A DNA stretch of 53,609 bases from Candidatus Omnitrophota bacterium. GTDB taxonomy: Bacteria; Omnitrophota; Gorgyraeia; Gygaellales; Profunditerraquicolaceae. The stretch lies in NCBI GenBank assembly GCA_026387405.1, contig JAPLLV010000030.1:1-53609 (forward strand), given 5' to 3'. The notes beneath the pieces are model-generated. The model saw only the letters and a list, made by a program, of their open reading frames with translations, was not told where the DNA came from and made no database searches. Shown piece by piece: positions 19,080-29,862 of this stretch (position 1 is the first letter of the stretch; each line of letters begins with the position of its first letter). A program made the translations under genes and the position numbers.

Positions 19080-19535
19080 TTATAGATGAGGCGCGAGATC
19101 CACGATTTCTTCCACCTGCATCTGGATCAGGTATTTAGGTTCGGGTAACATAATCTCGGGATGGCGCGCGTGCCCCTTCTGGCCGCTGATATTTTTCAGC
19201 ACTCTTTGCGTTAACCTGCTGGTAATCCTGTCTTCCCAGGCCCTGATGAGCTCATTATCAAGCTTGTCGCCTTTAATAAGCCTGGTTATCCCTTTAAGAC
19301 AATAACCTTTAAATTTATGCTCATCCACCGCGGTTATGCTTATGCTCGGATTTTTATTCAGGTTCGCATAGGTTTTACTATGATAAAGGTCCAATAGAAA
19401 GACTTCTCCGTTGCTCTTTATTTCCACTATGCCCTTGCAGGAATTATGCGGCATCCCCTTATCGTCAATAGTTGAAACAATTACAAAACCCTGATTCTGA
19501 AAAAAATGTATCACGTCGCTATTCAGCTTTTCCAT
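19080..19535 (-). CDS. Pyridoxamine 5'-phosphate oxidase-family FMN-binding protein
   Basis: VSTID..G.P, KT..NL..NP, GYCLKG. Confidence 0.8.
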   Translation of the reverse strand: MEKLNSDVIHFFQNQGFVIVSTIDDKGMPHNSCKGIVEIKSNGEVFLLDLYHSKTYANLNKNPSISITAVDEHKFKGYCLKGITRLIKGDKLDNELIRAWEDRITSRLTQRVLKNISGQKGHARHPEIMLPEPKYLIQMQVEEIVDLAPHL

Positions 19536-19546
19536 CGCCGCGTACT

Positions 19547-19705
19547 TTATACTTTCTCAAACATATCCTTGGGTACGCCGCACTCGGGGCATACCCAGGA
19601 ATCAGGCAGTTCTTCAAAAGCCGTGCCAGGCTTTATCCCGTTATCCGGATCGCCCTTCTCCGGATCATAAATATACCCGCACACCGTACACCGATACTTT
19701 ACCAT
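19547..19705 (-). CDS. Rubredoxin (52 aa, absent from the ORF track)
   Basis: Hand translation [52 protein letters not shown]; SD gaaggag. Confidence 0.97.
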
Positions 19706-19732
19706 AACTTACACTCCTTCTTCGCAGTAGTA

Positions 19733-19901
19733 GACACCCGATTTTATCATGCACCCGGCCATACCTGATTGGCCGGTGCGCCGCCACTGCGGCGATAAAT
19801 CGGTGTCCCGCCTTCTGCGGGAACACCCGCGCAATCGCCTCACAAGAGGCGCACTTTGCCATCCGATAGGCAAAGGTGTCTATCGCTTAGCGCGGGGTGT
19901 C
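19733..19901. repeat. Composite of four nested two-hairpin (CAC..GGTG) elements
   Basis: Units at 19733-19822(-), 19751-19794(-), 19824-19901(+) and 19836-19881(+). Confidence 0.8.
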
Positions 19902-20076
19902 ACTTGGTCAACTCGACTATTTTCTTCTCAAGCAATATCTTATGCTTGGTTTCCTCGCCGAGCAAGAATAGAAAGGTCTCTTGCGCAACCGGGTAATCAA
20001 GAGAGAATTTCCGATAGAGGTCCATTGCCTCGATCTCTTTGGATAAAGCCAATTTTAACGCCTCAATAGGCCCCAT
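19900..20076 (-). CDS. 58-aa half-ferritin / rubrerythrin-like mini-protein (absent from the ORF track)
   Basis: MGPIEALKLALSKEIEAMDLYRKFSLDYPVAQETFLFLLGEETKHKILLEKKIVELTK; a single E..A...Y plus EExxH set; SD ggag. Confidence 0.8.
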   Translation of the reverse strand: MGPIEALKLALSKEIEAMDLYRKFSLDYPVAQETFLFLLGEETKHKILLEKKIVELTK

Positions 20077-20095
20077 AGAGCGTCTCCATTTTTTT

Positions 20096-20127
20096 GGGGA
20101 CGGTTCTCCATAGCGAGAACCGTCCCC
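20096..20127. repeat. Hairpin with perfect 13-bp arms (REP-like)
   Basis: ggggacggttctc-catagc-gagaaccgtcccc; no 3' U-tract on either strand. Confidence 0.65.
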
Positions 20128-20136
20128 CTGATCATA

Positions 20137-20196
20137 CTATTTCTTTTTCTTTGCCTTTTTCTTCGGTTTCTTTGGACCGCAGCTTCCGCAGCTCAT
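20137..20196 (-). CDS. Putative 19-aa peptide MSCGSCGPKKPKKKAKKKK
   Basis: ATG preceded by a strong SD (aaggaggtgagct), TAG stop, co-directional with its neighbours. Confidence 0.55.
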   Translation of the reverse strand: MSCGSCGPKKPKKKAKKKK

Positions 20197-20207
20197 AGCT
20201 CACCTCC

Positions 20208-20256
20208 TTGTCCACAAGGACAACACCCGCGCAAATCCTATCTGCGCGGGGTGTCT
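20208..20256 (+). repeat. Two-hairpin CAC..GGTG element
   Basis: ttgtcc-acaa-ggacaa CAC ccgcgc-aaatcctatct-gcgcgg GGTG tct. Confidence 0.8.
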
Positions 20257-20263
20257 CTCCTTA

Positions 20264-21460
20264 TTAACTATGAGAAACTATCTTTGCCGCAAACTCATTT
20301 CCCCATTGATAACACTGCTTTAACATAGACTCGTCCGGAGAGTATTGAGTAGTCAGGGCCGGCTGCGTGATCTCTATGCCGGCCTCTTTCATTATACCCT
20401 CTATTTCTTTCTGCGCACCTCCTGCCCAGCCGTAAGAGCCGAATGTGGCGCCTACCCTGTTCTTGGACCTTATCCCTTTTATAAATTCCAGGAAACCCGC
20501 GATATTCGGGAGCATATCATTATCGTGAGTAGAAGAACCGAACAGGAATCCTTTTGCATCCAGCATCTCGCTAATCACCTCGGTGCGGTCAGTCAAGGCA
20601 ATATCAAAAAGTTTTACCTTTATACCCGCGTCTTCTAAGCCTTCCAGAATTTTTCTTGCCATCTTCTCAGTCGCTCCCCACATCGTTTCATACGCTATCA
20701 CAACCTTTTCTTGCGTGGTATTCTTAGCCCATCCCGAGTAGGCATTTAAAACCTTTGCGGGATCCTTGCGCCAGATAATGCCGTGGCTGGGAGCGATCAT
20801 ATCGATAGAGATACCGGATTTCTGGATCTCTTCGATCTTTTTCAAGATAACCCCGCCCAATGGCCAGAGGATATTGGCATAATATTTTTTTGTCTCCTCC
20901 ATGAGCGCGCAGGGGTCTGTCTCGTCATCAAACCTTTCAGCTGTGGCATAGTGCTGGCCAAAGGCGTCATTAGGCATAAGCAATTTTTCTTCCGGGCAAT
21001 AGGTAAACATGCTGTCCGGCCAGTGGATCATCGGGGCCTCGAAAAAGTTGAGGGTGCGTTTCCCCAGATCCAATTTGTCGCCGGTCTTGACTACCTGAAA
21101 ATCCCAGTCTTCGTGATAATGCTTCCACAGGCCTTCTTTACACTTAGCGGTACCCAGCACTTTTGCCTTGGGGCAGAGCTTTGTTATTGCGGGGAGGGCG
21201 CCTGAATGGTCGGTCTCCACGTGATTGGCAATGATATAATCGATTTTCTCAAGAGGGATGATCTCTCTTATCCTTTCGATCAATTCGGAGGCAAAAGGAC
21301 CGTACACCGTATCCACCAGGGCTATTTTTTCATCTACCACCAGATAGGCATTATAGGTAGTCCCGCGTTTAGTCGTATAGGTATGCCCGTGAAAGCTGCG
21401 CATATTCCAATCCACTGCGCCCACCCAAAAGATATTCTTTTTGATCTCGATCTTGTTCAT
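20264..21460 (-). CDS. fprA: Flavodiiron protein (FprA / rubredoxin:O2/NO oxidoreductase)
   Basis: GTTYNAYL, NHVETDHSG, HWPDSM, DAFGQH, PSHG, flavodoxin domain FGSYGW. Confidence 0.95.
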   Translation of the reverse strand: MNKIEIKKNIFWVGAVDWNMRSFHGHTYTTKRGTTYNAYLVVDEKIALVDTVYGPFASELIERIREIIPLEKIDYIIANHVETDHSGALPAITKLCPKAKVLGTAKCKEGLWKHYHEDWDFQVVKTGDKLDLGKRTLNFFEAPMIHWPDSMFTYCPEEKLLMPNDAFGQHYATAERFDDETDPCALMEETKKYYANILWPLGGVILKKIEEIQKSGISIDMIAPSHGIIWRKDPAKVLNAYSGWAKNTTQEKVVIAYETMWGATEKMARKILEGLEDAGIKVKLFDIALTDRTEVISEMLDAKGFLFGSSTHDNDMLPNIAGFLEFIKGIRSKNRVGATFGSYGWAGGAQKEIEGIMKEAGIEITQPALTTQYSPDESMLKQCYQWGNEFAAKIVSHS

Positions 21461-21480
21461 TGAAACCTCCCGCGGTCAAC

Positions 21481-22338
21481 TTACTGAGTAATCAGTAATT
21501 CGTCGATAATTTTCGCCATGATAAAGTCATTCTCTGTCAAGCCGCCGGCTGCGTGAGTGGTAAGCGTGATCTTGACTTTATTATAGATTATTGTAATTGT
21601 AGGGTGATGCCCTTGTTCCTCGGCAATCACCGCGACTAGATCTACGAAGTACTTTGCCTCTACGAAATCCTTGAACTTGAATTCCTTTACCAGCTTCTTG
21701 TCTTCAACAAATTCCCAGCCCCGGTACTTTGCCAGTAATCTCTCTATCTTTTCTTTGGGTAAAGGCGGCGTCCCCCCTTCGCAGGGCCGGCAATGTTCGG
21801 GAAGCTCGTCCTTTTTTGCAACTGCCGGAAGATTAATCACCTCTTCTAATTTTTTTAGTGCAGCTTCGTAATCCGGAGGCGCGGTCAACTCTCCGACAAT
21901 CTGTATATACCTGATAATGTCTTCTTTGTCTACTATAATTATAGTCCTGGCCAATAGATTCAATTCTTTTATAAGTAACCCGTAGTTTATGCCGAAAGAA
22001 CCTGTCTTGTAATCGGAAAGTAGCGTGACGTTCTTGATGCCGTTTTCCGAACAGAATCTTTTCTGGGCAAAAGGGAGGTCTTTGCTTATCCCGATAATGG
22101 CCACTTCCGAAGAAATACCCGTAGCCCTCTTATTAAATTCCTTTACCTGCAGGTCGCACACCGGGGTATCAATGGAGGGAAAGCTGGTGATGATCCTGAG
22201 TTTATTTTTAAAATCAGCCAGAGTAACTTCTTTTAGATCCTGGGAGGTTACCTTAAAGTCCGGAGCAACAATCCCCTCTTTTAAGGCCCTGCCCACCAGC
22301 GTCAAAGGATTTCCTTTAAAAGTTATTGTTTTAACCAT
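21481..22338 (-). CDS. tpx: Thiol peroxidase fused to pterin-4a-carbinolamine dehydratase
   Basis: N-terminal TFKGNP, PSIDTPVC, DLPFAQKRFC; C-terminal CRPCEGG, AEEQGHHP, THAAGGLTENDFIMA. Confidence 0.9.
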   Translation of the reverse strand: MVKTITFKGNPLTLVGRALKEGIVAPDFKVTSQDLKEVTLADFKNKLRIITSFPSIDTPVCDLQVKEFNKRATGISSEVAIIGISKDLPFAQKRFCSENGIKNVTLLSDYKTGSFGINYGLLIKELNLLARTIIIVDKEDIIRYIQIVGELTAPPDYEAALKKLEEVINLPAVAKKDELPEHCRPCEGGTPPLPKEKIERLLAKYRGWEFVEDKKLVKEFKFKDFVEAKYFVDLVAVIAEEQGHHPTITIIYNKVKITLTTHAAGGLTENDFIMAKIIDELLITQ

Positions 22339-22350
22339 TTTCCCCCCTCT

Positions 22351-23061
22351 TCAGTATCCTATAAATTGTTCGGTTTTTATCTGCTCCTTGGAACAACCCA
22401 TCCCCAGGCACAGGTTATTCATCGCCTCTACCATCTTAGGAGGGCCAAAGGTAAATATAACCCTCTGGCTCATATCGCACATATATTTTTTTAATAAACC
22501 TTCATCTATCCTGCCGAAGATACAGGTCGCTTCCCTGGGCGGACAATCAGTCACCACATAGCTTACCTTTATATTCTTATTCTTCAGCTTCCACCCATCC
22601 AGCTCATTCTTAAAAGCTATCTCTTCTTCAGTGCGGTTGGAATAAATAAGACACACGTCCGTATCCAGCTTCTTATCCATTATATACTCGATAATAGAGA
22701 TCACCGGAGTGATACCTATGCCTCCTATGAGAAAGGCGATCTTCTTGTAGCTATCCTGGAACACGCAGGAACCTAGCGGCGTCTTAAACAGAAGTTCGTC
22801 ATTGACCTTTAGTACGTTGAGCCTCTGCGAAAATTTGCTTTCGCTTAACCTCTTGGTAACCTCAATATATTTTTTAGTGGGCGAAGATGAGAAAGAAAGA
22901 TATTTATTCAATTCCTTGTTATCCCTATTTAGCTCATCAAAGATAACCTGGGAGAACTGGCCCGGGATAAAATCAAGCGCCTGGGGCAGTTGAAATCTAA
23001 AACTCTCTACTGTCCGGGTCCTGACTATCTTTTCGAGAAAACTCAAACCTATCTCTTTCAT
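22351..23061 (-). CDS. FAD/NAD(P)-binding oxidoreductase (ferredoxin reductase-like)
   Basis: FIPGQF, SFSSSP, GGIGITP, YSNR, GPPKM. Confidence 0.88.
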   Translation of the reverse strand: MKEIGLSFLEKIVRTRTVESFRFQLPQALDFIPGQFSQVIFDELNRDNKELNKYLSFSSSPTKKYIEVTKRLSESKFSQRLNVLKVNDELLFKTPLGSCVFQDSYKKIAFLIGGIGITPVISIIEYIMDKKLDTDVCLIYSNRTEEEIAFKNELDGWKLKNKNIKVSYVVTDCPPREATCIFGRIDEGLLKKYMCDMSQRVIFTFGPPKMVEAMNNLCLGMGCSKEQIKTEQFIGY

Positions 23062-23996
23062 AGGCCGACTTCCTTGATCACCGCCTTGATCGTATCAGCG
23101 GATTTCCTTAAAGAAACCAGCTCCTGCTCGCTGGGGTTGATCCTGAGCAGCTCACGTATGCCTGCGCGGTGGACTACCGCCGGAACGCTTAAATACACGT
23201 CGCTGATACCATGGTAATCCTCCAGATAACAGGAAACAGGCAAAATAGAATTCTCATCTTTTAAGATCGCCTCACTGATCTTCACCAGGGCCAGGGCAAT
23301 GCCGTAGGAAGTCTCTCCCTTCCTGGTAATTATTTGATATGCGTAGTCCCTGGCCTCTTTAAAAATATCATCTAACCGGCTATGGTCGCACTTATGGCAG
23401 GCAGGGCAGTATTCCGTGAAGAACATACTGCCTATAATAGCCTTACTCCATAAAGGGAACTCGGAATCCCCGTGCTCGCCCAGGATATAGGCGTGGACAT
23501 TACGGGCATCTATATTGCAGTGTTTGGCCAGAAGCCACCTGAAACGCGAACTGTCAAGGACCGTCCCGGAACCTATTACTTCCTGCCAGGGCTTTCCGGA
23601 AAACTTATGCGCCGCGTAGGAAAGCACGTCTACGGGATTAGTAACTACCAACCATACCGCTTTTTGGGCATGCCTGGCTACGTGGGGAATGATCTCCTTG
23701 AATACTTCGACATTATCGCGCACAAGGTCAAGCCTGGTCTGGCCGGGCTTCTGTTTTGCCCCCGCTGTGATAACCACTAAATCCGCGTCTTCCAGATCAG
23801 GATAATCTCCTACTTTTATCTCTACGGGAGACATATAGGGCATGCCGCTGGCCAGGTCCAAAACCTCGCCTTCAGCGCGCGCCTTATCCCGGTCAAGGAT
23901 GACTACGGAACGCGCGACTCCGCTTATCACCAGGCTATAGGCGTATCTTATACCTACGTTTCCTGCGCCAATGATCCCTATTTTTGGCTTAAGCAT
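23058..23996 (-). CDS. ldh: L-lactate dehydrogenase
   Basis: GAGNVG, TAGAKQKPGQTRLDL (Gln indicates LDH specificity), TNPVD, LDSSR, GEHGDS. Confidence 0.93.
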   Translation of the reverse strand: MLKPKIGIIGAGNVGIRYAYSLVISGVARSVVILDRDKARAEGEVLDLASGMPYMSPVEIKVGDYPDLEDADLVVITAGAKQKPGQTRLDLVRDNVEVFKEIIPHVARHAQKAVWLVVTNPVDVLSYAAHKFSGKPWQEVIGSGTVLDSSRFRWLLAKHCNIDARNVHAYILGEHGDSEFPLWSKAIIGSMFFTEYCPACHKCDHSRLDDIFKEARDYAYQIITRKGETSYGIALALVKISEAILKDENSILPVSCYLEDYHGISDVYLSVPAVVHRAGIRELLRINPSEQELVSLRKSADTIKAVIKEVGL

Positions 23997-24018
23997 ATAT
24001 AGTATCCTTCACAGTAAT

Positions 24019-24065
24019 AGACACCCGATTTTACCGGATAAATCGGTGTACTGCCTTCTGCAGTA
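24019..24065 (-). repeat. Two-hairpin CAC..GGTG element
   Basis: Minus strand: tactgc-agaag-gcagta CAC cgattt-atccggta-aaatcg GGTG tct. Confidence 0.8.
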
Positions 24066-24122
24066 TTATCTCATTGCCACTTACCTTTATCAATTATTTA
24101 ATTCCGCTTTCTATTGACTTTT

Positions 24123-24169
24123 CGCCACAGAAGGTGGCGCACTTTGCCTTCCGATAGGCAAAGGTGTCT
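24123..24169 (+). repeat. Two-hairpin CAC..GGTG element
   Basis: cgccac-agaag-gtggcg CAC tttgcc-ttccgata-ggcaaa GGTG tct. Confidence 0.8.
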
Positions 24170-24173
24170 CCGA

Positions 24174-24434
24174 CTATCCAAATATATCCTTTAAATCCTT
24201 CTCCGGGTGGAACCCTTTTAATTCTCTCCACTTGTCTTCGCCAATACACTCCCGGGCATGCTTACACCAATCTACGCACGAAGGAAGCCTCTCCCGGCAG
24301 ACCAGGTTCTTGCACTTGGGGCACCCCACCTTTACTTCATCGGAAAAGATCTCTAATTTATGTCCGCAATCAGGGCACCTGATGGTCTCGACCTTCAAAT
24401 TCCTGTCGTCCTGCCCCGGGCATTTCTGCATCAT
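24174..24434 (-). CDS. Small Cys-rich metal-binding protein
   Basis: CPGQD, CPDC, CPKC, CVDWC..AREC; 4-nt overlap with the upstream ferredoxin gene. Confidence 0.75.
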   Translation of the reverse strand: MMQKCPGQDDRNLKVETIRCPDCGHKLEIFSDEVKVGCPKCKNLVCRERLPSCVDWCKHARECIGEDKWRELKGFHPEKDLKDIFG

Positions 24435-25111
24435 GCTATTTTTTCTCCTTTTATACTAATAGTGATCTCCTTAAACGGCACTTTTTTACCGCTGCGCCGG
24501 ATCGCTTCCTGGATAATGCCTACGAGCCCGAAGCAACAAGGCACCTCCATGTGCGCATAGGTTATCGACCACACGTTGTTATTCTCCAGTATCTGAACAA
24601 ATTTTTCTTGATATACCTCTAGATCGTCAAGTTTCGGACACCCCACAAGCAGGGTCTTTCCTTTTAGTAAATCCTCATGGAAATTCGCATAGGCAAACGG
24701 CACGCAATCCGCGGCGATCAACAGATCCACATTATTTAAATAGGGCGCAAAAGGAGGAACGAGCGCCAACTGCACAGGCCATTGGCGCAGCTGCGACTCA
24801 ATCCCTCCTCCAGCTTGCCCCTTACCTTCCGTGGCAGGCGCGGCTTCTTTTTTCCTGAAATCCATCATCTTTGACCCGGGACAACCGGGAGATCCCGGAT
24901 GCACAAATTCCTTAGCCTCCCTCTCTTCAATGGTAATCGCGTCCTGAGGACACTTGCCGAGGCATGCGCCCAGGCCGTCGCATAATACATCGCTCACTAA
25001 GCGCGCTTTGCCATCTACCAACCGTATCGCTCCCTCTTGACAATTAGGTATGCATAAACCGCAACCGTTACATTTATTTTCATCAATTTTGATTATTTTT
25101 CTTTTTACCAT
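24431..25111 (-). CDS. 2x[4Fe-4S] ferredoxin-domain iron-sulfur protein
   Basis: CNGCGLC..NC, CDGLGACLGKCP, GCPG, QWPVQL, AADC, GCPKLD, MEVPCC. Confidence 0.9.
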   Translation of the reverse strand: MVKRKIIKIDENKCNGCGLCIPNCQEGAIRLVDGKARLVSDVLCDGLGACLGKCPQDAITIEEREAKEFVHPGSPGCPGSKMMDFRKKEAAPATEGKGQAGGGIESQLRQWPVQLALVPPFAPYLNNVDLLIAADCVPFAYANFHEDLLKGKTLLVGCPKLDDLEVYQEKFVQILENNNVWSITYAHMEVPCCFGLVGIIQEAIRRSGKKVPFKEITISIKGEKIA

Positions 25112-25114
25112 ACA

Positions 25115-25516
25115 TCAGTCTCGCGCTAAATTACCTATGGTTATCTTTCCTATGTCCTTCAACGCCTGCCTCTCTATCTCCATTATTTTCTTTCTCAGGC
25201 CGCATGAATATCGCCTGGGACAGCATTCTTTTTTAAAAAGGCACTCGTTAAGGGAAAACTGGCCCTGGAAAACCCGCATCACCTCTATTAAGCTTATTCT
25301 CCCCGGGGAGATCGCCATGGAGAACCCTCCACCCTTACCTTTATATGCCTTTAATATGCCCTTATTGTGCAATAGCTGAAGGATCTTGCGTAAAAAAGGC
25401 CGCGGTATCTCAAGTGCCTTTACCAGCTCAGGCACGGATATCGTCCTCTCCCGATGCTTAGCCAGGTAACACAGCGCCCTTACCGCGTAATCAGTGTCTC
25501 TTGTGATTAACTTCAT
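25115..25516 (-). CDS. Rrf2-family transcriptional regulator
   Basis: ITRDTDYAVRAL, FLRKILQ, GKGGGF, C-terminal Cys cluster; start moved to MKLITR. Confidence 0.92.
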   Translation of the reverse strand: MKLITRDTDYAVRALCYLAKHRERTISVPELVKALEIPRPFLRKILQLLHNKGILKAYKGKGGGFSMAISPGRISLIEVMRVFQGQFSLNECLFKKECCPRRYSCGLRKKIMEIERQALKDIGKITIGNLARD

Positions 25517-25524
25517 ACTCCCTC

Positions 25525-25571
25525 TTGTCCGCAAGGACAACACCCGCGCAACCCCTATCTGCGCGGGGTGC
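25525..25571 (+). repeat. Two-hairpin CAC..GGTG element
   Basis: ttgtcc-gcaa-ggacaa CAC ccgcgc-aacccctatct-gcgcgg GGTG. Confidence 0.8.
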
Positions 25572-25578
25572 CTCATCC

Positions 25579-25608
25579 AAATGATACCATAATTGTATCA
25601 TTTGTCAA
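25579..25608 (-). promoter_or_regulatory. Sigma70 promoter overlapped by a palindromic operator (probable Rrf2 site)
   Basis: TTGACA-16 nt-TATCAT with a TG extension; inverted repeat aaatgatac-N7-gtatcattt. Confidence 0.7.
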
Positions 25609-25609
25609 G

Positions 25610-25649
25610 AAAAAAAGGAGGGGGGCGCTAAGAAACGCGCCCCCTCCGG
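25610..25649 (-). terminator. Rho-independent terminator after thi4
   Basis: ggagggggcgc..gcgcccccctcc stem followed by a T-run on the minus strand. Confidence 0.8.
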
Positions 25650-25656
25650 ACTTTCT

Positions 25657-26463
25657 TCAGCTCGCTAATGGCAATGGTTCCCGCAAAACAGATTTCCCCA
25701 GGATCTCTTTCGCAAGCTTAGCGGCCTTTATTCCTGAATAGAGCATCCCCGAAAATGTCGGCCCCATGCGCGGGATCCCGTACGCGCTTGAAACCGCCAT
25801 ACCGCAAACCAACAGCCCCGGGAAGATAACGCCGGTTTTTTCAACCACGAGGTCTTCGGATGTGTTCACGTCCATAGGCCCGAAATCTTTCAATTGAAGG
25901 AGTTTTCTCCTCTCCAGCGCCCTACAGACGTGCGCATCATGCCCGGTGGCATCAATAACTACCTTTGCTTCTAAAGAAACCGGGTCAACGCAGGTGATCT
26001 GCCTGGGAAGCGCAGAAACCGGCGTCCAATTAATTACCACTCCTTCGACGCGGTTGTTACGCAAGACTACGTCATCGAATTTGGTCATATTCAGGATTTT
26101 TGCTCCGGCATCGCAGGCAGCGGCGATCAGCTTTGAGCAGGCCTCGGGACCGGAAGCGGTAAACAAACCCTTCTCTACCTCTTGATGACGGATACCCAAT
26201 TCAGTCAGGATCACTTGCCCCGGGGCTCTAAAGGTCAGCGTATTCATAAGATATCCGCCGATCCAGAAACCTCCTCCGATGTAATTATTGCTTTCCACTA
26301 CCAGCGTTTTAATGCCTGACCCAGCCAAATCCCTTGCCGCGATAAGCCCGCTTGGCCCTCCGCCGATGATGATAATGTCGCTCGTGATATACTCCTGGAA
26401 CCAGCGATCGAAATCTCCCACGATCGCCCTGGTGATACTTGCCTCACTTACCTTTGCAAACAT
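25657..26463 (-). CDS. thi4: Thi4-family adenosine diphosphate thiazole synthase
   Basis: GGGPSGL, GGGFWIGG, CVDP, DATGH, PRMGPTFSGMLYSG; start MFAKVSE (26463); TPP riboswitch upstream. Confidence 0.95.
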   Translation of the reverse strand: MFAKVSEASITRAIVGDFDRWFQEYITSDIIIIGGGPSGLIAARDLAGSGIKTLVVESNNYIGGGFWIGGYLMNTLTFRAPGQVILTELGIRHQEVEKGLFTASGPEACSKLIAAACDAGAKILNMTKFDDVVLRNNRVEGVVINWTPVSALPRQITCVDPVSLEAKVVIDATGHDAHVCRALERRKLLQLKDFGPMDVNTSEDLVVEKTGVIFPGLLVCGMAVSSAYGIPRMGPTFSGMLYSGIKAAKLAKEILGKSVLREPLPLAS

Positions 26464-26509
26464 ACCTCTCCCCCTTTCATCTAGACCAAGATAACCCAGC
26501 CGGATAAAT

Positions 26510-26539
26510 AAAAAATCCCTATTGCCAACCAATAGGGAC
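26510..26539 (-). terminator. Riboswitch expression-platform terminator
   Basis: tccctattg-gttgg-caataggga followed by tttttt, between the aptamer and thi4. Confidence 0.8.
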
Positions 26540-26554
26540 GTCTAAAACAACTAC

Positions 26555-26645
26555 CTATTCCTACGCTGGCATTATCCAGATCAGGTTCTCGGGTCATCCG
26601 CTCTTACAGCGGAACTCTCAGGCCGTTTCACGACCTCCCCGTATT
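26555..26645 (-). ncRNA. TPP riboswitch
   Basis: Minus strand: gggg..ctgaga..gaccc..gaacctgatctggataatgccagcgtaggaa, the canonical THI-box motifs. Confidence 0.95.
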
Positions 26646-26679
26646 TACATTTTCATTAAACCACAAAATAATACCGGAG

Positions 26680-27423
26680 TCAATGTTTAACTTCCGGGAT
26701 CTTATTGAGAAACGGTACGCACAGATTTAAGGCTAAAAGGCCGGCGAGCTCAACGTCAAACGTCGCCCCCGCTTGAGTCAGAACAAAAATTACCGCTGCC
26801 ACGCCAACGCCGAAGATAGTCTTCCCCAGCGGTTTTATGGGGGTAGTCTTGGGCTCGATGAGCATAACAAAGATATAGAAATAACTGAAGATCCCGAATA
26901 TGTTCGATAGAGGGGCGTGCTGGGTAAGCATCTGCATACCGAAGAGAACGAACGAGGTAACGGCGTAACCATACAACACCTCCAGCTTCCTTATCTTCCA
27001 GATGAAATATAGACCAACCGGCACAACGATATACCAAAGATACGTACCTTTCCATTGAGTTTGGGCCTGCAATAAAACCGTGCTCAAAAATATCCCTATA
27101 GCGGCGGGATTAAATAAATGCTTGCCCTTAAAACGAATAAGATGCTTTGAGCAGATTGCGATAAACGCAGCCGCGACAAAAACCCACCAGGGATTGTCGC
27201 TTGCCAGCACATACCCGATAATCAGGCCTGAGATAACAGAGCTCTCAGTCAGGAGTAGTTTCTTTGACCTTATATAGGTAAAAACAGAATCTATGGCTAT
27301 AGCCGAAGCGGTTGCAAGCAAAGTAGTAAGCAGGAACATCGCGCCTTTGCCTACTATAAACAGATAAAATACGAATAAGAACAAGTAGATAACTAATTGC
27401 GACTTAATACTTATATTTTTCAT
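26680..27423 (-). CDS. Stand-alone RnfD/NqrB-family membrane protein
   Basis: SSVISGLII, AICSKHLI..GKHLFNPAA, FVMLIEPKTTP. Confidence 0.75.
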   Translation of the reverse strand: MKNISIKSQLVIYLFLFVFYLFIVGKGAMFLLTTLLATASAIAIDSVFTYIRSKKLLLTESSVISGLIIGYVLASDNPWWVFVAAAFIAICSKHLIRFKGKHLFNPAAIGIFLSTVLLQAQTQWKGTYLWYIVVPVGLYFIWKIRKLEVLYGYAVTSFVLFGMQMLTQHAPLSNIFGIFSYFYIFVMLIEPKTTPIKPLGKTIFGVGVAAVIFVLTQAGATFDVELAGLLALNLCVPFLNKIPEVKH

Positions 27424-27475
27424 AAGCCCTCCATTGTTATTAAGGCTTTTGGTTTCGTCTCGGCGCTAAAATATC

Positions 27476-28639
27476 TTATTTAAAGATGCGGTTAAATAAA
27501 AGCCCTAAGAGAATGATCTGCGGGACGCTAACGACCGGCATCCACAACGCCACCCGCCTGCCCACATACGTCCATAAAAGGCCAATCTCGGTATAATCCG
27601 TAGCCACACCGGCCATCAGGAAAGTAAAACTGTTTCCCAGGGCCCCGGTCTGGCGATAGATCTCAAAGGCAAGCGGCGATGAACCTTCCGAGCATACCTC
27701 TATAACCGTTGCCAAAGCCAATGTCACAAAAAGGCCCAGCAATGTCGGCCCCATATATTTATGGAAAAAATGTACCGGGATATAGGCGCCGGCGAGACTG
27801 GAAATAAATATCCCGATAATAATCCACCAGAGCACCATATCCGCAAGTGACACTGTCCCTCTCAAGACTCCCCGAGAATCGGCAAGCAGGGTCTTTCGCC
27901 CAAAATGATACCTCTTACACCGCGCCTTGATATCATGGAGAATAGAAAAGCCTTCCCTCAACTCCAGGCTATTGCTATTTTTTTCGATCAGGCCTCTTTC
28001 TTCCAGAAACATAAAGATCAGGCCGGTGTTCACTGCCACGATCAAGGCCGCGATAATAATAAATAACCCCTTAAACCCGAAAAACCCGATCAGCATCACC
28101 GTAATAGTAAAATTTGCCCAAGGGCTGGCCAGCAAAAAGGCCACTACCGCAGGATTCGAGGCCCCCTTTTTATGCAGTTGGATGGTAAGCGCCAGGATCC
28201 CGTGGCTGCAGGCGCTCAACAGAAATCCCAACGACACTGCCTTTATTATCGTGCCGGCTTTCTTCTTGGCAAGGATTTTAGAGATGTATTCCCGCGGGAC
28301 ATAATAATCGATTACGCCGCCTAAGAATAAACCAACTGCAACCGCCCACCAGATCATCCTGATATAACTCAAGAATTCCCTGCGAAAGGCTCCCAGAAAC
28401 GGAAAAACGCCGGCGCCTGCTACGCACAATACAGAAACTGCACTTACAAGAAATAACTTATTTTTAAAAAACGGATTCCTGGACTGCGGCAGACACACTA
28501 TTACGTCTTGCGCGCCCTCCTGCTTAAGAAACTTATCCTTGCAGTGCACAGAACAGAAGAAATACTCATCCCCATCCTTAACCACCCTGACGGCAGAGCG
28601 CTCATCTACATCCATACCGCAAACAGGGTCTCTTTTCAT
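27476..28639 (-). CDS. YHS-domain permease (DUF318/ArsP-like)
   Basis: DPVCGM..YFFCS..C YHS domain; ACSHG, FLLASP, EVCSEGSSP. Confidence 0.85.
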   Translation of the reverse strand: MKRDPVCGMDVDERSAVRVVKDGDEYFFCSVHCKDKFLKQEGAQDVIVCLPQSRNPFFKNKLFLVSAVSVLCVAGAGVFPFLGAFRREFLSYIRMIWWAVAVGLFLGGVIDYYVPREYISKILAKKKAGTIIKAVSLGFLLSACSHGILALTIQLHKKGASNPAVVAFLLASPWANFTITVMLIGFFGFKGLFIIIAALIVAVNTGLIFMFLEERGLIEKNSNSLELREGFSILHDIKARCKRYHFGRKTLLADSRGVLRGTVSLADMVLWWIIIGIFISSLAGAYIPVHFFHKYMGPTLLGLFVTLALATVIEVCSEGSSPLAFEIYRQTGALGNSFTFLMAGVATDYTEIGLLWTYVGRRVALWMPVVSVPQIILLGLLFNRIFK

Positions 28640-28650
28640 CGCTTAACCTA

Positions 28651-29796
28651 TCACTTGAGTTTTAAGTGCTCTCTGCTTAACTTAAGAAAAACGTTAAATG
28701 CATTTCTACTCTTTATATTCTTTATCATCCGAAAGGTTTCAATTAACGCCCAGGCGCCGTAAACCCACAGTATCTCCTCCCGGATACCCGGGATCAAAAA
28801 TTGCACCAGCCATAATATAAAGAGGGCCGAGGCCTCAAAGAACGCGAAATCCATGCTGGCCAGAAAAAGAAATCCCAGGTAAGACTGGACGATAGTCAAA
28901 AGTATCTCTAATCTTTGATGTTCGTCAAAAGTAACGTAGGAAATCTTCCCCATCCCGAAAGAATAGATAAAAGGGATCATTGCCACCAGGATAGTCCATT
29001 GATTGATAGAGGAAGAAACAAAATTTACCAGGGCCATAGGCGCCTTGGTCACTTTTCTCGCCCAGTAAAAAGCCGAGAGTTTCTCCGGGAATTCGCTCAA
29101 GAAAGGCGCTACCCATTGCACAAAGACAAATTGCGAAACGCCTACGGAAACCGCTAAGGCGAGCATGGAATTAAGAAAAGGGTGCGCTGAAAAATACAGG
29201 ATAACTGCCCCGGCGATGAAAAACAAGACGATCCAGATGATGTTAACCGGATATTTATACCGCATCATGAACTTCGGGATACGCCCCAGATCATCCATCT
29301 CTTCCTCATCATGGGGAGGCATTTTTGACAAAAGATACAGGTAAACAAAATAAATAGCTCCTAAGACCAGGCCATCAAAGATATTCAGCGTGCCTTTGAA
29401 ATAAATCACCAAAAAGTAAAGCAGGGCCGGCAGGAGCGCTAATATAGCTATAGAATGTTCATCCTCCAATTCTATAGCCCACAAGCCTTTTTTCCCGCCG
29501 CGTTTCTTATGAAAAAATAATGCTACAAAATAGACCATCGGCCAGCCTAAACCGACAAATAACCTCAAAGAACCCGTGTAGTTGGCGGTGATAAGGTGCA
29601 CCTTGGAAGGATCCTTGGCCGCGGTAAGCGCGATCACCCCTTCCACCGCGAATTCAGGAAGGGTCTGTATCCAGGCAAGCATTGCCAACGCCAGGCCCTG
29701 GGAGATGAAGAATTGGCCGCATTCAGCTGCCCAGGCAATAAGCATAGCTGCTAAAACGATCGCCGGGAAGGTCCATAAAGCGCTAAGTGCTTCCAT
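28651..29796 (-). CDS. Ca2+/cation antiporter (Na/Ca exchanger family)
   Basis: QTLPEFAVE, ANYTGS, APFLSEFPE, SSSINQWT alpha-repeats. Confidence 0.82.
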   Translation of the reverse strand: MEALSALWTFPAIVLAAMLIAWAAECGQFFISQGLALAMLAWIQTLPEFAVEGVIALTAAKDPSKVHLITANYTGSLRLFVGLGWPMVYFVALFFHKKRGGKKGLWAIELEDEHSIAILALLPALLYFLVIYFKGTLNIFDGLVLGAIYFVYLYLLSKMPPHDEEEMDDLGRIPKFMMRYKYPVNIIWIVLFFIAGAVILYFSAHPFLNSMLALAVSVGVSQFVFVQWVAPFLSEFPEKLSAFYWARKVTKAPMALVNFVSSSINQWTILVAMIPFIYSFGMGKISYVTFDEHQRLEILLTIVQSYLGFLFLASMDFAFFEASALFILWLVQFLIPGIREEILWVYGAWALIETFRMIKNIKSRNAFNVFLKLSREHLKLK

Positions 29797-29812
29797 TGGT
29801 TATTATGACTCC

Positions 29813-29862
29813 TTTCACAGAAAGTGAAACACCCGCGCAAATCCGCTTAGCGCGGGGTGTCT
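29813..29862 (+). repeat. Two-hairpin CAC..GGTG element
   Basis: tttcac-agaaa-gtgaaa CAC ccgcgc-aaatccgctta-gcgcgg GGTG tct. Confidence 0.8.

Follow-up and report, generated by a model that had tools for sequence, protein, structure and literature searches.

A dispersed family of covarying two-hairpin repeats in Candidatus Omnitrophota, probably a miniature non-autonomous mobile DNA element

Short repeats that fold into hairpins or lie in intercistronic gaps are known from several bacterial systems. Elements of the IS608/ISDra2 type have no terminal inverted repeats, make no target duplication and carry a different hairpin at each end; their insertion is strand- and orientation-specific beside a short target, with a preference for potentially single-stranded DNA. 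The mycobacterial interspersed repetitive units (MIRUs) are repeats of about 50 nt in the intercistronic gaps of operons, in one orientation with respect to transcription and touching stop and start signals; they are tandem direct repeats with small reading frames and are not known as covarying hairpins or as nested. The small dispersed repeats (SDRs) of Nostocaceae, reportedly described by Elhai et al. in 2008, are said to be very small (about 21-27 nt), nested in each other and in other repeats and without a known transposase; they belong to another phylum and are not known to take the form of two-hairpin units next to ribosome-binding sites (RBSs). The repetitive extragenic palindromes (REPs) are defined by a palindrome of which one end bears a conserved tag, GTAG (or CGTC), and have been reported inside small target palindromes (Di Nocera et al. 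2013, PMC3733652). The present work concerns a repeat of two hairpins, roughly 45 nt long, of which nine copies lie in a 53,609-nt stretch of DNA from a Candidatus Omnitrophota bacterium (hereafter the window; contig C17 of a 1.92-Mb assembly of 84 contigs, 92.9% complete), and which is probably a miniature, non-autonomous mobile DNA element distributed in part of the phylum Omnitrophota.

The unit begins with a hairpin, with a stem of 5-7 bp and a loop of 4-5 nt (AGAAG, AGAAA, ACAA or AGTA), directly followed by CAC. Its second part is formed by a 6-bp stem, a loop of 8 or 11 nt, the return stem and GGTG, in which one G has no partner. The 8-nt loops resemble ATCCGATA, and the 11-nt loops resemble AATTCCTATCT or AAATCCGCTTA. 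A preliminary description of the window had listed nine copies of this architecture together with their stems, and re-reading of the window confirmed the architecture, the stems and the presence of every copy to within 3 nt (Table 1). The copy it gave as 19824-19901 on the forward strand has the CAC hairpin but lacks a separate first hairpin: the palindromic one at 19806-19822 serves both outer units, which share it head-to-head, an arrangement seen again on contig C53. The CAC/GGTG pair, described as constant, is so within the window but not in the genome as a whole, where CGC...GGCG, TGC...GGCA, TAC...GGTA and GTG without the extra G also occur. Folded as single strands, six single units adopt the structure as drawn, with z-scores of -4.0 to -6.6, and the nested cluster gives a branched fold (-5.96).

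The nine copies are members of a dispersed family in which structure is conserved and sequence is variable. Units with an 8-nt loop and units with an 11-nt loop were given a covariance model each, R1 and R2 respectively, built from gap-free subsets, because the first hairpin was misregistered in a MAFFT alignment of all 54 units and some rows were misregistered in the model-fitted alignment A5. Run over the genome, these models bore out the expectation of further copies, with 72 (R1) and 78 (R2) matches at E <= 1 (the E-values being rough), some of them missed by pattern searches; neither model found a tenth copy in the window. A strict pattern occurs at 60 places in the genome and returns 59 units with 8- or 11-nt loops once the first hairpin is demanded. 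An iterative parse, in which inner units were excised and the remainder rescanned and from which a loop filter removed 21 doubtful rows, gave at least 104 units in 74 loci, of which 48 are single, 23 two-level and 3 three-level. A relaxed descriptor gave 73 hits, but the reversed genome still yielded 11 and the shuffles 20-28, a background so high that it was used only with the loop filter. Six apparently new hairpin families proved to be the reverse strand of nested copies and were dropped.

Pairing can be tested independently of the way in which the copies are found. When sites were collected by CAC, loop consensus and GGTG without any demand for pairing, 52 were obtained in the genome, and 46 of them have all six stem pairs, five have five pairs and one has two; by our own arithmetic full pairing is expected by chance at about 0.3% of sites. 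The copies within one genome are related and not independent. The family was also sought elsewhere, in one genome per species for 185,579 species, by an exact pattern of the unpaired and constant positions only. The yield was 74 stretches with 77 units, from records named Candidatus Omnitrophota or Omnitrophica, third-party assemblies labelled "uncultured Planctomycetales/Planctomycetia bacterium", one "bacterium" and the complete genome of Candidatus Velamenicoccus archaeovorus LiM; in a viral contig collection the same exact pattern had 0 matches. In a gap-free alignment of 71 of these units (A7; three loci with two matches or a cut match were left out), standard pairs fill 95.0% of the 1005 pair cells; in shuffles the share is 74.1%, and none of 500 equals the observed value. 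Pairing falls to 26-42% if the partner is slid by 1-3 columns. Both sides have changed in 11 of the 15 pairs, and G-U pairs make up only about 1% of the cells. The fold has thus been kept while the stems were replaced, as the preliminary description had proposed from the copies of the window; its remark that a repeat search by sequence alone would split the family is borne out by the 32 distinct second-stem sequences among the 77 units.

In several respects the unit works like REPs, bacterial interspersed mosaic elements (BIMEs) and REPINs. It is short, present in high copy (104 units, 74 loci, 1.92 Mb), extragenic and hairpin-forming, falls into subfamilies that differ in stem sequence within one genome, occurs in inverted pairs and mosaic clusters (19735-19899; genome G208) and is transcribed within operons, in a genome that has genes for REP-associated tyrosine transposases (RAYTs). 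It fails, however, the defining tests of these elements, the tag and the flanked RAYT gene. Unlike a REP, the unit consists of two different hairpins and not of one palindrome; CAC and GGTG make up the invariant columns, the alignments show no GTAG or CGTC tag, and GTAG is found only in some first-hairpin loops (alignments A2 and A7). Unlike REPs, too, it lies flush 5' of RBSs and not mainly at the 3' ends of genes, and it nests regularly in its own loops, in one orientation only. With the miniature elements of the IS200/IS605 group (palindrome-associated transposable elements, PATEs) it has in common the lack of target duplication and terminal inverted repeats and the possession of two different ends, here the first hairpin and the CAC...GGTG hairpin; insertion specific for strand and orientation is a further resemblance. 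It seems to depart from them in its target, a loose pyrimidine tract with no fixed word of 4-5 nt in the flanks (the element ends being uncertain by 1-2 nt), and the flanks, which have neither terminal inverted repeats nor target-site duplications, also set it apart from a classical miniature inverted-repeat transposable element. Term searches of the main texts of PMC10066038, PMC3733652, bioRxiv 10.64898/2026.06.07.730766 and PMC12306157 returned no description of this repeat.

The preliminary description had called the unit a structure-recognised, non-autonomous, REP-like element and possibly the substrate of an HUH enzyme. The REP-like reading is supported, with mobile-DNA-like behaviour seen in nesting and in filled or empty sites, but the REP tag and a RAYT gene belonging to the unit were not found. 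The corresponding explanation, that of a classical REP/REPIN family moved in trans on single-stranded DNA by one of the RAYT-type Y1 (HUH) transposases of the genome, seems to us unlikely. It would account for the absence of target duplication and terminal inverted repeats and for the orientation-specific insertion, including insertion in hairpin loops, and the genome does contain four Y1_Tnp genes, two of which are above the NCBIfam cut-off for REP-associated tyrosine transposases; with filters off, however, a canonical unit flanks none of the four. The nearest approach is the RAYT-like gene of contig C40, which has upstream (locus L002, 1320-1365) a hairpin pair of like architecture, with other loops and without the extra G (R2 13 bits, E 0.03), and downstream (L002, 2003-2014) an inverted half-copy, AGACRCTTTCCC; yet this hairpin pair has no second instance in the genome, and none of 28 orthologues of the gene in relatives has a unit-like hairpin pair within about 350 nt. 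In five element-rich relatives a unit lies within 1.5 kb at only 1 of 14 Y1 loci, which is about the background density. On contig C80 the RAYT gene lies between murG and ftsW, and the inverted copies on either side of it are of another repeat, GGGGGACAGTTCTA (L001, 1317-1380 and 1873-1991). Across genomes the repeat and the enzyme do not go together either: of the 39 relatives with the element 29 have Y1 genes, and of the 21 that lack it 15 do, as judged in incomplete genomes by R2 matches, hence for the 11-nt-loop model only, and two genomes are openly discordant, G024 (94% complete) with 10 units and no Y1 gene and G042 with 12 Y1 matches and no unit. In genome G208 the element strand is the locally G-rich strand in 31 of 37 R1 matches, as single-stranded transposition would have it, but this bias is confounded with gene direction; in the six exceptions the orientation mostly follows the neighbouring gene, and RBS-adjacent units, which run against the replication-strand rule of IS200/IS605 elements, are among them. 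As the tests of flanks and of co-occurrence are negative, the HUH link is unsupported on genomic grounds, and no nuclease or transposase gene among the Y1/RAYT genes examined is consistently flanked by the motif.

The other mobilising enzymes looked for were likewise not found in the 92.9%-complete assembly. None of the four Y1 genes is above the cut-off for an IS200-type TnpA (NF033573, 28.8 bits against 55), and TnpB (PF07282), an IS110 transposase and a reverse transcriptase were not found in it; in this respect the genome as assembled differs from one that carries an IS200/IS605 system. The C80 gene and the repeat on its two sides look like an ordinary REP-RAYT pair, and one separate from the two-hairpin family. 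This second repeat family (also given as GGGGACAGTTCTA) has an 11-nt core with 13 hits in the genome, some of them palindromic dimers, and is represented in the window by GGGGAC(A/G)GTTCT, which forms a 13-bp palindrome at 20096-20127, between the gene of a 19-aa peptide and that of a 58-aa protein.

Nesting is one of the signs of mobile behaviour. The 26 composite loci among the 74 reach a depth of three units, and 29 hosts carry guests on the same strand; a dedicated search found no opposite-strand host for any of 75 inner-level units. The guest always sits in the loop of the host; its position is aaWt^cc if this loop has 11 nt and at^cc if it has 8. Excision of the guest from its first hairpin to GGTG restores an 11-nt host loop in 4 of the 29 hosts, and on contigs C2, C72 and C82 (three of the four) the restored loop is letter-identical to the loops of uninterrupted copies; in most other hosts 1-2 extra bases remain. 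No target duplication was seen in the flanks of nested or single copies. The order of the subfamilies is regular, with CCGCGC units hosting TGGCCC units, which in turn host CGGCGC units. Whole composites are found again at unrelated loci (that of 19735-19822 on contig C76, 39067-39154; a pair matching 19836-19878 in its host on contig C82), so an outer unit can carry its guest along. Nests are present in other genomes as well (locus L124 and several units of the cross-genome scan).

The surroundings of the single and composite loci follow a common trend. A pyrimidine follows GGTG at 69 of the 74 loci of this genome and in 73 of the 76 units taken from other genomes, and the right flank here reads YCT. 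On the left, 62 of 150 units are immediately preceded by four pyrimidines, a composition shown by 8.5% of random 4-mers; a CTCC-like word (GGAG in antisense) stands there at 22 of the 74 loci, and 19 of the 76 units from other genomes follow a T-run, usually after a terminator-like hairpin. These flanking sequences suggest a single rule for all classes of context, namely that each unit is set in a tract of pyrimidines on its own strand; it would therefore appear antisense at RBSs, sense after terminators and at TTCCT or TCC when nested in loops. With respect to genes, an RBS and a start codon with an open frame lie within 32 nt of the first hairpin on the opposite strand at 30 of 74 loci and on the same strand at 4 of 74, the latter including the copies before ldh and rubredoxin. 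Where the genes on both sides run the same way, by crude calls from our own picks of reading frames, 43 units are antisense to them and 13 sense. The adjacency to Shine-Dalgarno sites noted in the preliminary description is confirmed, on the opposite strand for the copies at the 19-aa peptide, Rrf2 and exchanger genes and on the same strand for those at ldh and rubredoxin. Two loci are 23-27 nt from a tRNA gene.

This placement bears on whether the unit acts as RNA. That it is a gene-specific cis-regulatory RNA (a riboswitch or attenuator) of a regulon is very improbable: its hairpins are conserved and several copies are in leaders, but more than 100 copies lie beside unrelated genes (in the window Rrf2, a Na/Ca exchanger, Ldh, a flavodiiron protein and rubredoxin), they nest within each other, both strands are used, and Rfam offers no match to the family at the gathering or E-value threshold. 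In the window only a TPP (thiamine pyrophosphate) riboswitch passes (Table 1), and over 19650-20300 nothing meaningful was found at E <= 10. The preliminary description had taken the occurrence in both orientations as an argument against a cis-RNA switch; the rejection of a gene-specific switch stands, but the orientation is not free, as the 30 opposite-strand against 4 same-strand cases at RBSs show.

More serious is the possibility that the units are kept mainly for work in the mRNA, as a modular leader or intercistronic "punctuation" folded right 5' of the RBS, which would insulate the RBS, protect the 5' end of the downstream cistron or mark a processing site, with copy-and-paste serving only to spread the module. 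We regard it as a tentative alternative, clearly less probable than a mobile element. In its favour, the units at RBSs are flush with them in one orientation, in relatives a unit fits exactly between a stop codon and an RBS, and the family persists across families of the class. Metatranscriptome contigs from four runs of one study run through five units between 19651 and 20738 at a depth of 95-455, against 0-13 in neighbouring and upstream bins, and these units are thus part of an abundant RNA; such contigs cannot, however, show RNA ends, and those that end at 19651-19851, in or near repeats, probably mark assembly breaks. Mismatches give a mixed picture: in other genomes A.C, which is G.U on the mRNA strand, exceeds G.T (21 against 10), but in the own genome the numbers are 4 and 5, all of them few and not independent, and G-U pairs are as rare as stated above. 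A second context class, moreover, lies in sense after terminator T-runs, and 13 of the 56 units between co-directional genes are sense, so that a single RNA reading does not account for the two classes. The loop of a host is destroyed by its guest, related genomes differ in copy number from 0 to about 60, and a unit is missing at most orthologous junctions. Although the loops carry GGA, as a CsrA-type leader does in addition to a GGA in the RBS, CsrA (PF02599) was not found in the assembly. For a mobile repeat, too, a later or parallel role in the mRNA is conceivable.

The distribution in relatives, which are incomplete metagenome-assembled genomes, fits gain and loss. R2 detects the repeat in 31 of the 36 other genomes from this taxonomic family and in 8 of the 24 from other families of the order, with 1 to 48 matches each, so that the copy number among the 60 relatives runs from 0 to 48; by R1 it is present in 14 of 151 genomes of an even sample of the phylum, this one included, mostly in families f1 (7 of 9) and f29 (3 of 3), with 1 of 47 in f35. 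At 80 metagenome loci with a flavodiiron orthologue (52-74% identity, 601 kb), R1 and R2 together report 16 matches at 13 places. The site of 20208-20253 is filled in L078, L112 and L124, in the last by a unit of the other loop class, while at most other flavodiiron loci the stop codon leads straight to AAGGAGG and ATG without a unit. Upstream of the flavodiiron gene the junction reads TAGGAGG in many loci; L123-L125 have one or two units there, in L124 as a two-level nest. In G208, a 269-nt block with at least three units is absent in G162, of the same genus, and in G182, of another genus, where the flanks are contiguous (GATTGAATT followed immediately by ACGCAAC), which points to an insertion in the G208 lineage. 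At two further sites compared between G208 and G162 the units are kept in both genomes or are too mosaic to read. Of the empty orthologous sites proposed as a check, junctions filled in one genome and empty in another were thus found, but a clean empty site for a single unit was not.

The observations taken together are of a unit copied to many unrelated places, without target duplication, in a fixed orientation and in pyrimidine-rich stretches of its own strand, and these stretches are recurrently of three kinds: the TTCCT or TCC of another unit's loop, the antisense strand of an RBS and the T-run after a terminator hairpin. The units are then transcribed within neighbouring mRNAs. On the mobile-element reading, insertion would be an event at the level of DNA, aimed at the pyrimidine tract, and the enzyme would recognise the folded form of one strand; the stems change by covariation, and the loops, CAC/GTG and the extra G are constant. 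A more specific and more speculative form of the idea, to which we give considerably less credence than to mobility as such, is an undescribed mechanism in which an enzyme other than a RAYT recognises the two-hairpin DNA by its shape together with CAC/GTG, the extra G and the loop, and pastes it one-way and without duplication into exposed pyrimidine tracts; as it lands flush with RBSs, the host may have co-opted it as a standard leader module for many genes of these very small genomes.

Several points weigh against the reading as a mobile element. No mobilising enzyme was found, the RAYT tests being negative and no TnpB, IS110 or reverse transcriptase having been detected in the assembly. The pyrimidine flanks could in part reflect where insertion is tolerated, at gene boundaries, and not where it is targeted, and the RBS-flush placement, the high transcript depth and the slight excess of A.C would also fit selection on the mRNA. 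The 269-nt block of G208 contains non-unit sequence too and lacks pyrimidine-rich flanks; G162 has no counterpart of one terminator-adjacent unit of G208, yet the spacer has diverged and is not cleanly empty. Among the orthologous sites compared there was no strain-level insertion polymorphism with a clean single-unit empty site.

The Omnitrophota are uncultured, ultra-small bacteria with compact genomes, and in one such genome a folded 45-nt repeat is present in more than 100 copies, with about four in ten loci touching an RBS. If the repeat is structure-recognised mobile DNA without a RAYT partner, the range of REP-like elements would be widened beyond proteobacteria, and a further kind of mobilising enzyme would be implied; if it is also active in mRNA, it would be a natural modular leader that sets the translation-start context of many genes. 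In practice, such a repeat interrupts assemblies, gives rise to false reading frames and invites confusion with riboswitches or regulons, and it offers a ready strain-typing marker in the phylum. To what had been noticed before, the present analysis contributes the same-strand nesting and its site, the pyrimidine-tract rule, the separate REP-RAYT pair, the negative RAYT tests and the transcript evidence.

Table 1. Two-hairpin units and riboswitch of the window; positions are those of the 53,609-nt stretch, and scores refer to models R1 and R2 unless stated otherwise
Feature	Position	Strand	Sequence or score	Setting
Outer unit	19735-19822	-	TCCCGC agaag GCGGGA, CAC, CGATTT...AAATCG, GGTG	8-nt loop split by inner unit; sense, 29 nt before rubredoxin start codon
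Inner unit	19752-19794	-	CGCCGC agtg GCGGCG, CAC, CGGCCA atcaggta TGGCCG, GGTG; R1 52 bits	Nested in loop of 19735-19822(-), identical orientation
Outer unit	19806-19899	+	CAC CCGCGC...GCGCGG GGTG from 19824	Loop split by inner unit
Inner unit	19836-19878	+	CGCCTC acaa GAGGCG, CAC, TTTGCC atccgata GGCAAA, GGTG; R1 50.5 bits	Nested in CCGCGC host 19806-19899(+)
Single unit, 11-nt loop	20208-20253	+	R2 77.6 bits	On (-) strand, spans flavodiiron gene stop codon to GGAGG of 19-aa peptide gene (20137-20196, -)
Single unit, 8-nt loop	24022-24065	-	R1 64.4 bits	Sense, in ldh leader, 25 nt before start codon
Single unit, 8-nt loop	24123-24166	+	R1 66.5 bits	Antisense to genes; 7 nt past stop codon of 86-aa gene; inverted pair with 24022-24065, 57 nt apart
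Single unit, 11-nt loop	25525-25570	+	R2 72.7 bits	Flush with RBS (GAGGGAG) of (-)-strand Rrf2 gene
Single unit, 11-nt loop	29813-29859	+	R2 50.7 bits	On (-) strand, occupies gap from TAG stop of 1088-aa gene to GGAG of Na/Ca-exchanger gene
TPP riboswitch	26541-26651	-	67.2 bits (gathering score 54.3)	

The genes around the hairpin cluster, at 19547-21460, form an oxidative-stress set that comprises the 52-aa rubredoxin, a helical protein of 58 aa and the flavodiiron protein, which has an ODP and a flavodoxin domain. The helical protein has no Pfam match, and relatives of it come after the flavodiiron gene in many loci. The 19-aa peptide (MSCGSCGPKKPKKKAKKKK) is rich in Cys and Lys and its gene lies within the most abundant RNA segment of the region; a similar small peptide gene (MGCGCCGAAKKKPKKKAKKRK) follows the flavodiiron orthologue in L124. 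Within the deeply covered stretch 19651-20738 lie the hairpin cluster, the genes of the peptide and of the 58-aa protein and the last (3') third of the flavodiiron gene; over the remainder of that gene the depth is 1-13, and this step could be due to an internal promoter or to a stable processed RNA. Across the cluster, at 19472-20069, spurious frames of 54-106 aa run on both strands and could be annotated by automatic callers.

Two larger arrangements include the unit. In genome G000, contigs C3, C73, C64, C33, C4, C42 and C25 (loci L163-L166) share a module of about 130 nt, without an Rfam match in the four loci, in which AATGGAAAACAAC is followed by a hairpin, YTAGTGACAT, the two-hairpin unit and another hairpin; at L163 a reading frame ends in the first of these words. 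In G208, a single contig (L241-L269), many units are embedded in long mosaic repeats similar to BIME clusters, with the recurring spacers ...GTTAACCCAGAAAGGGTAGGCCTCCGCA... and ...CCATAAATTCTCAAGATAC....

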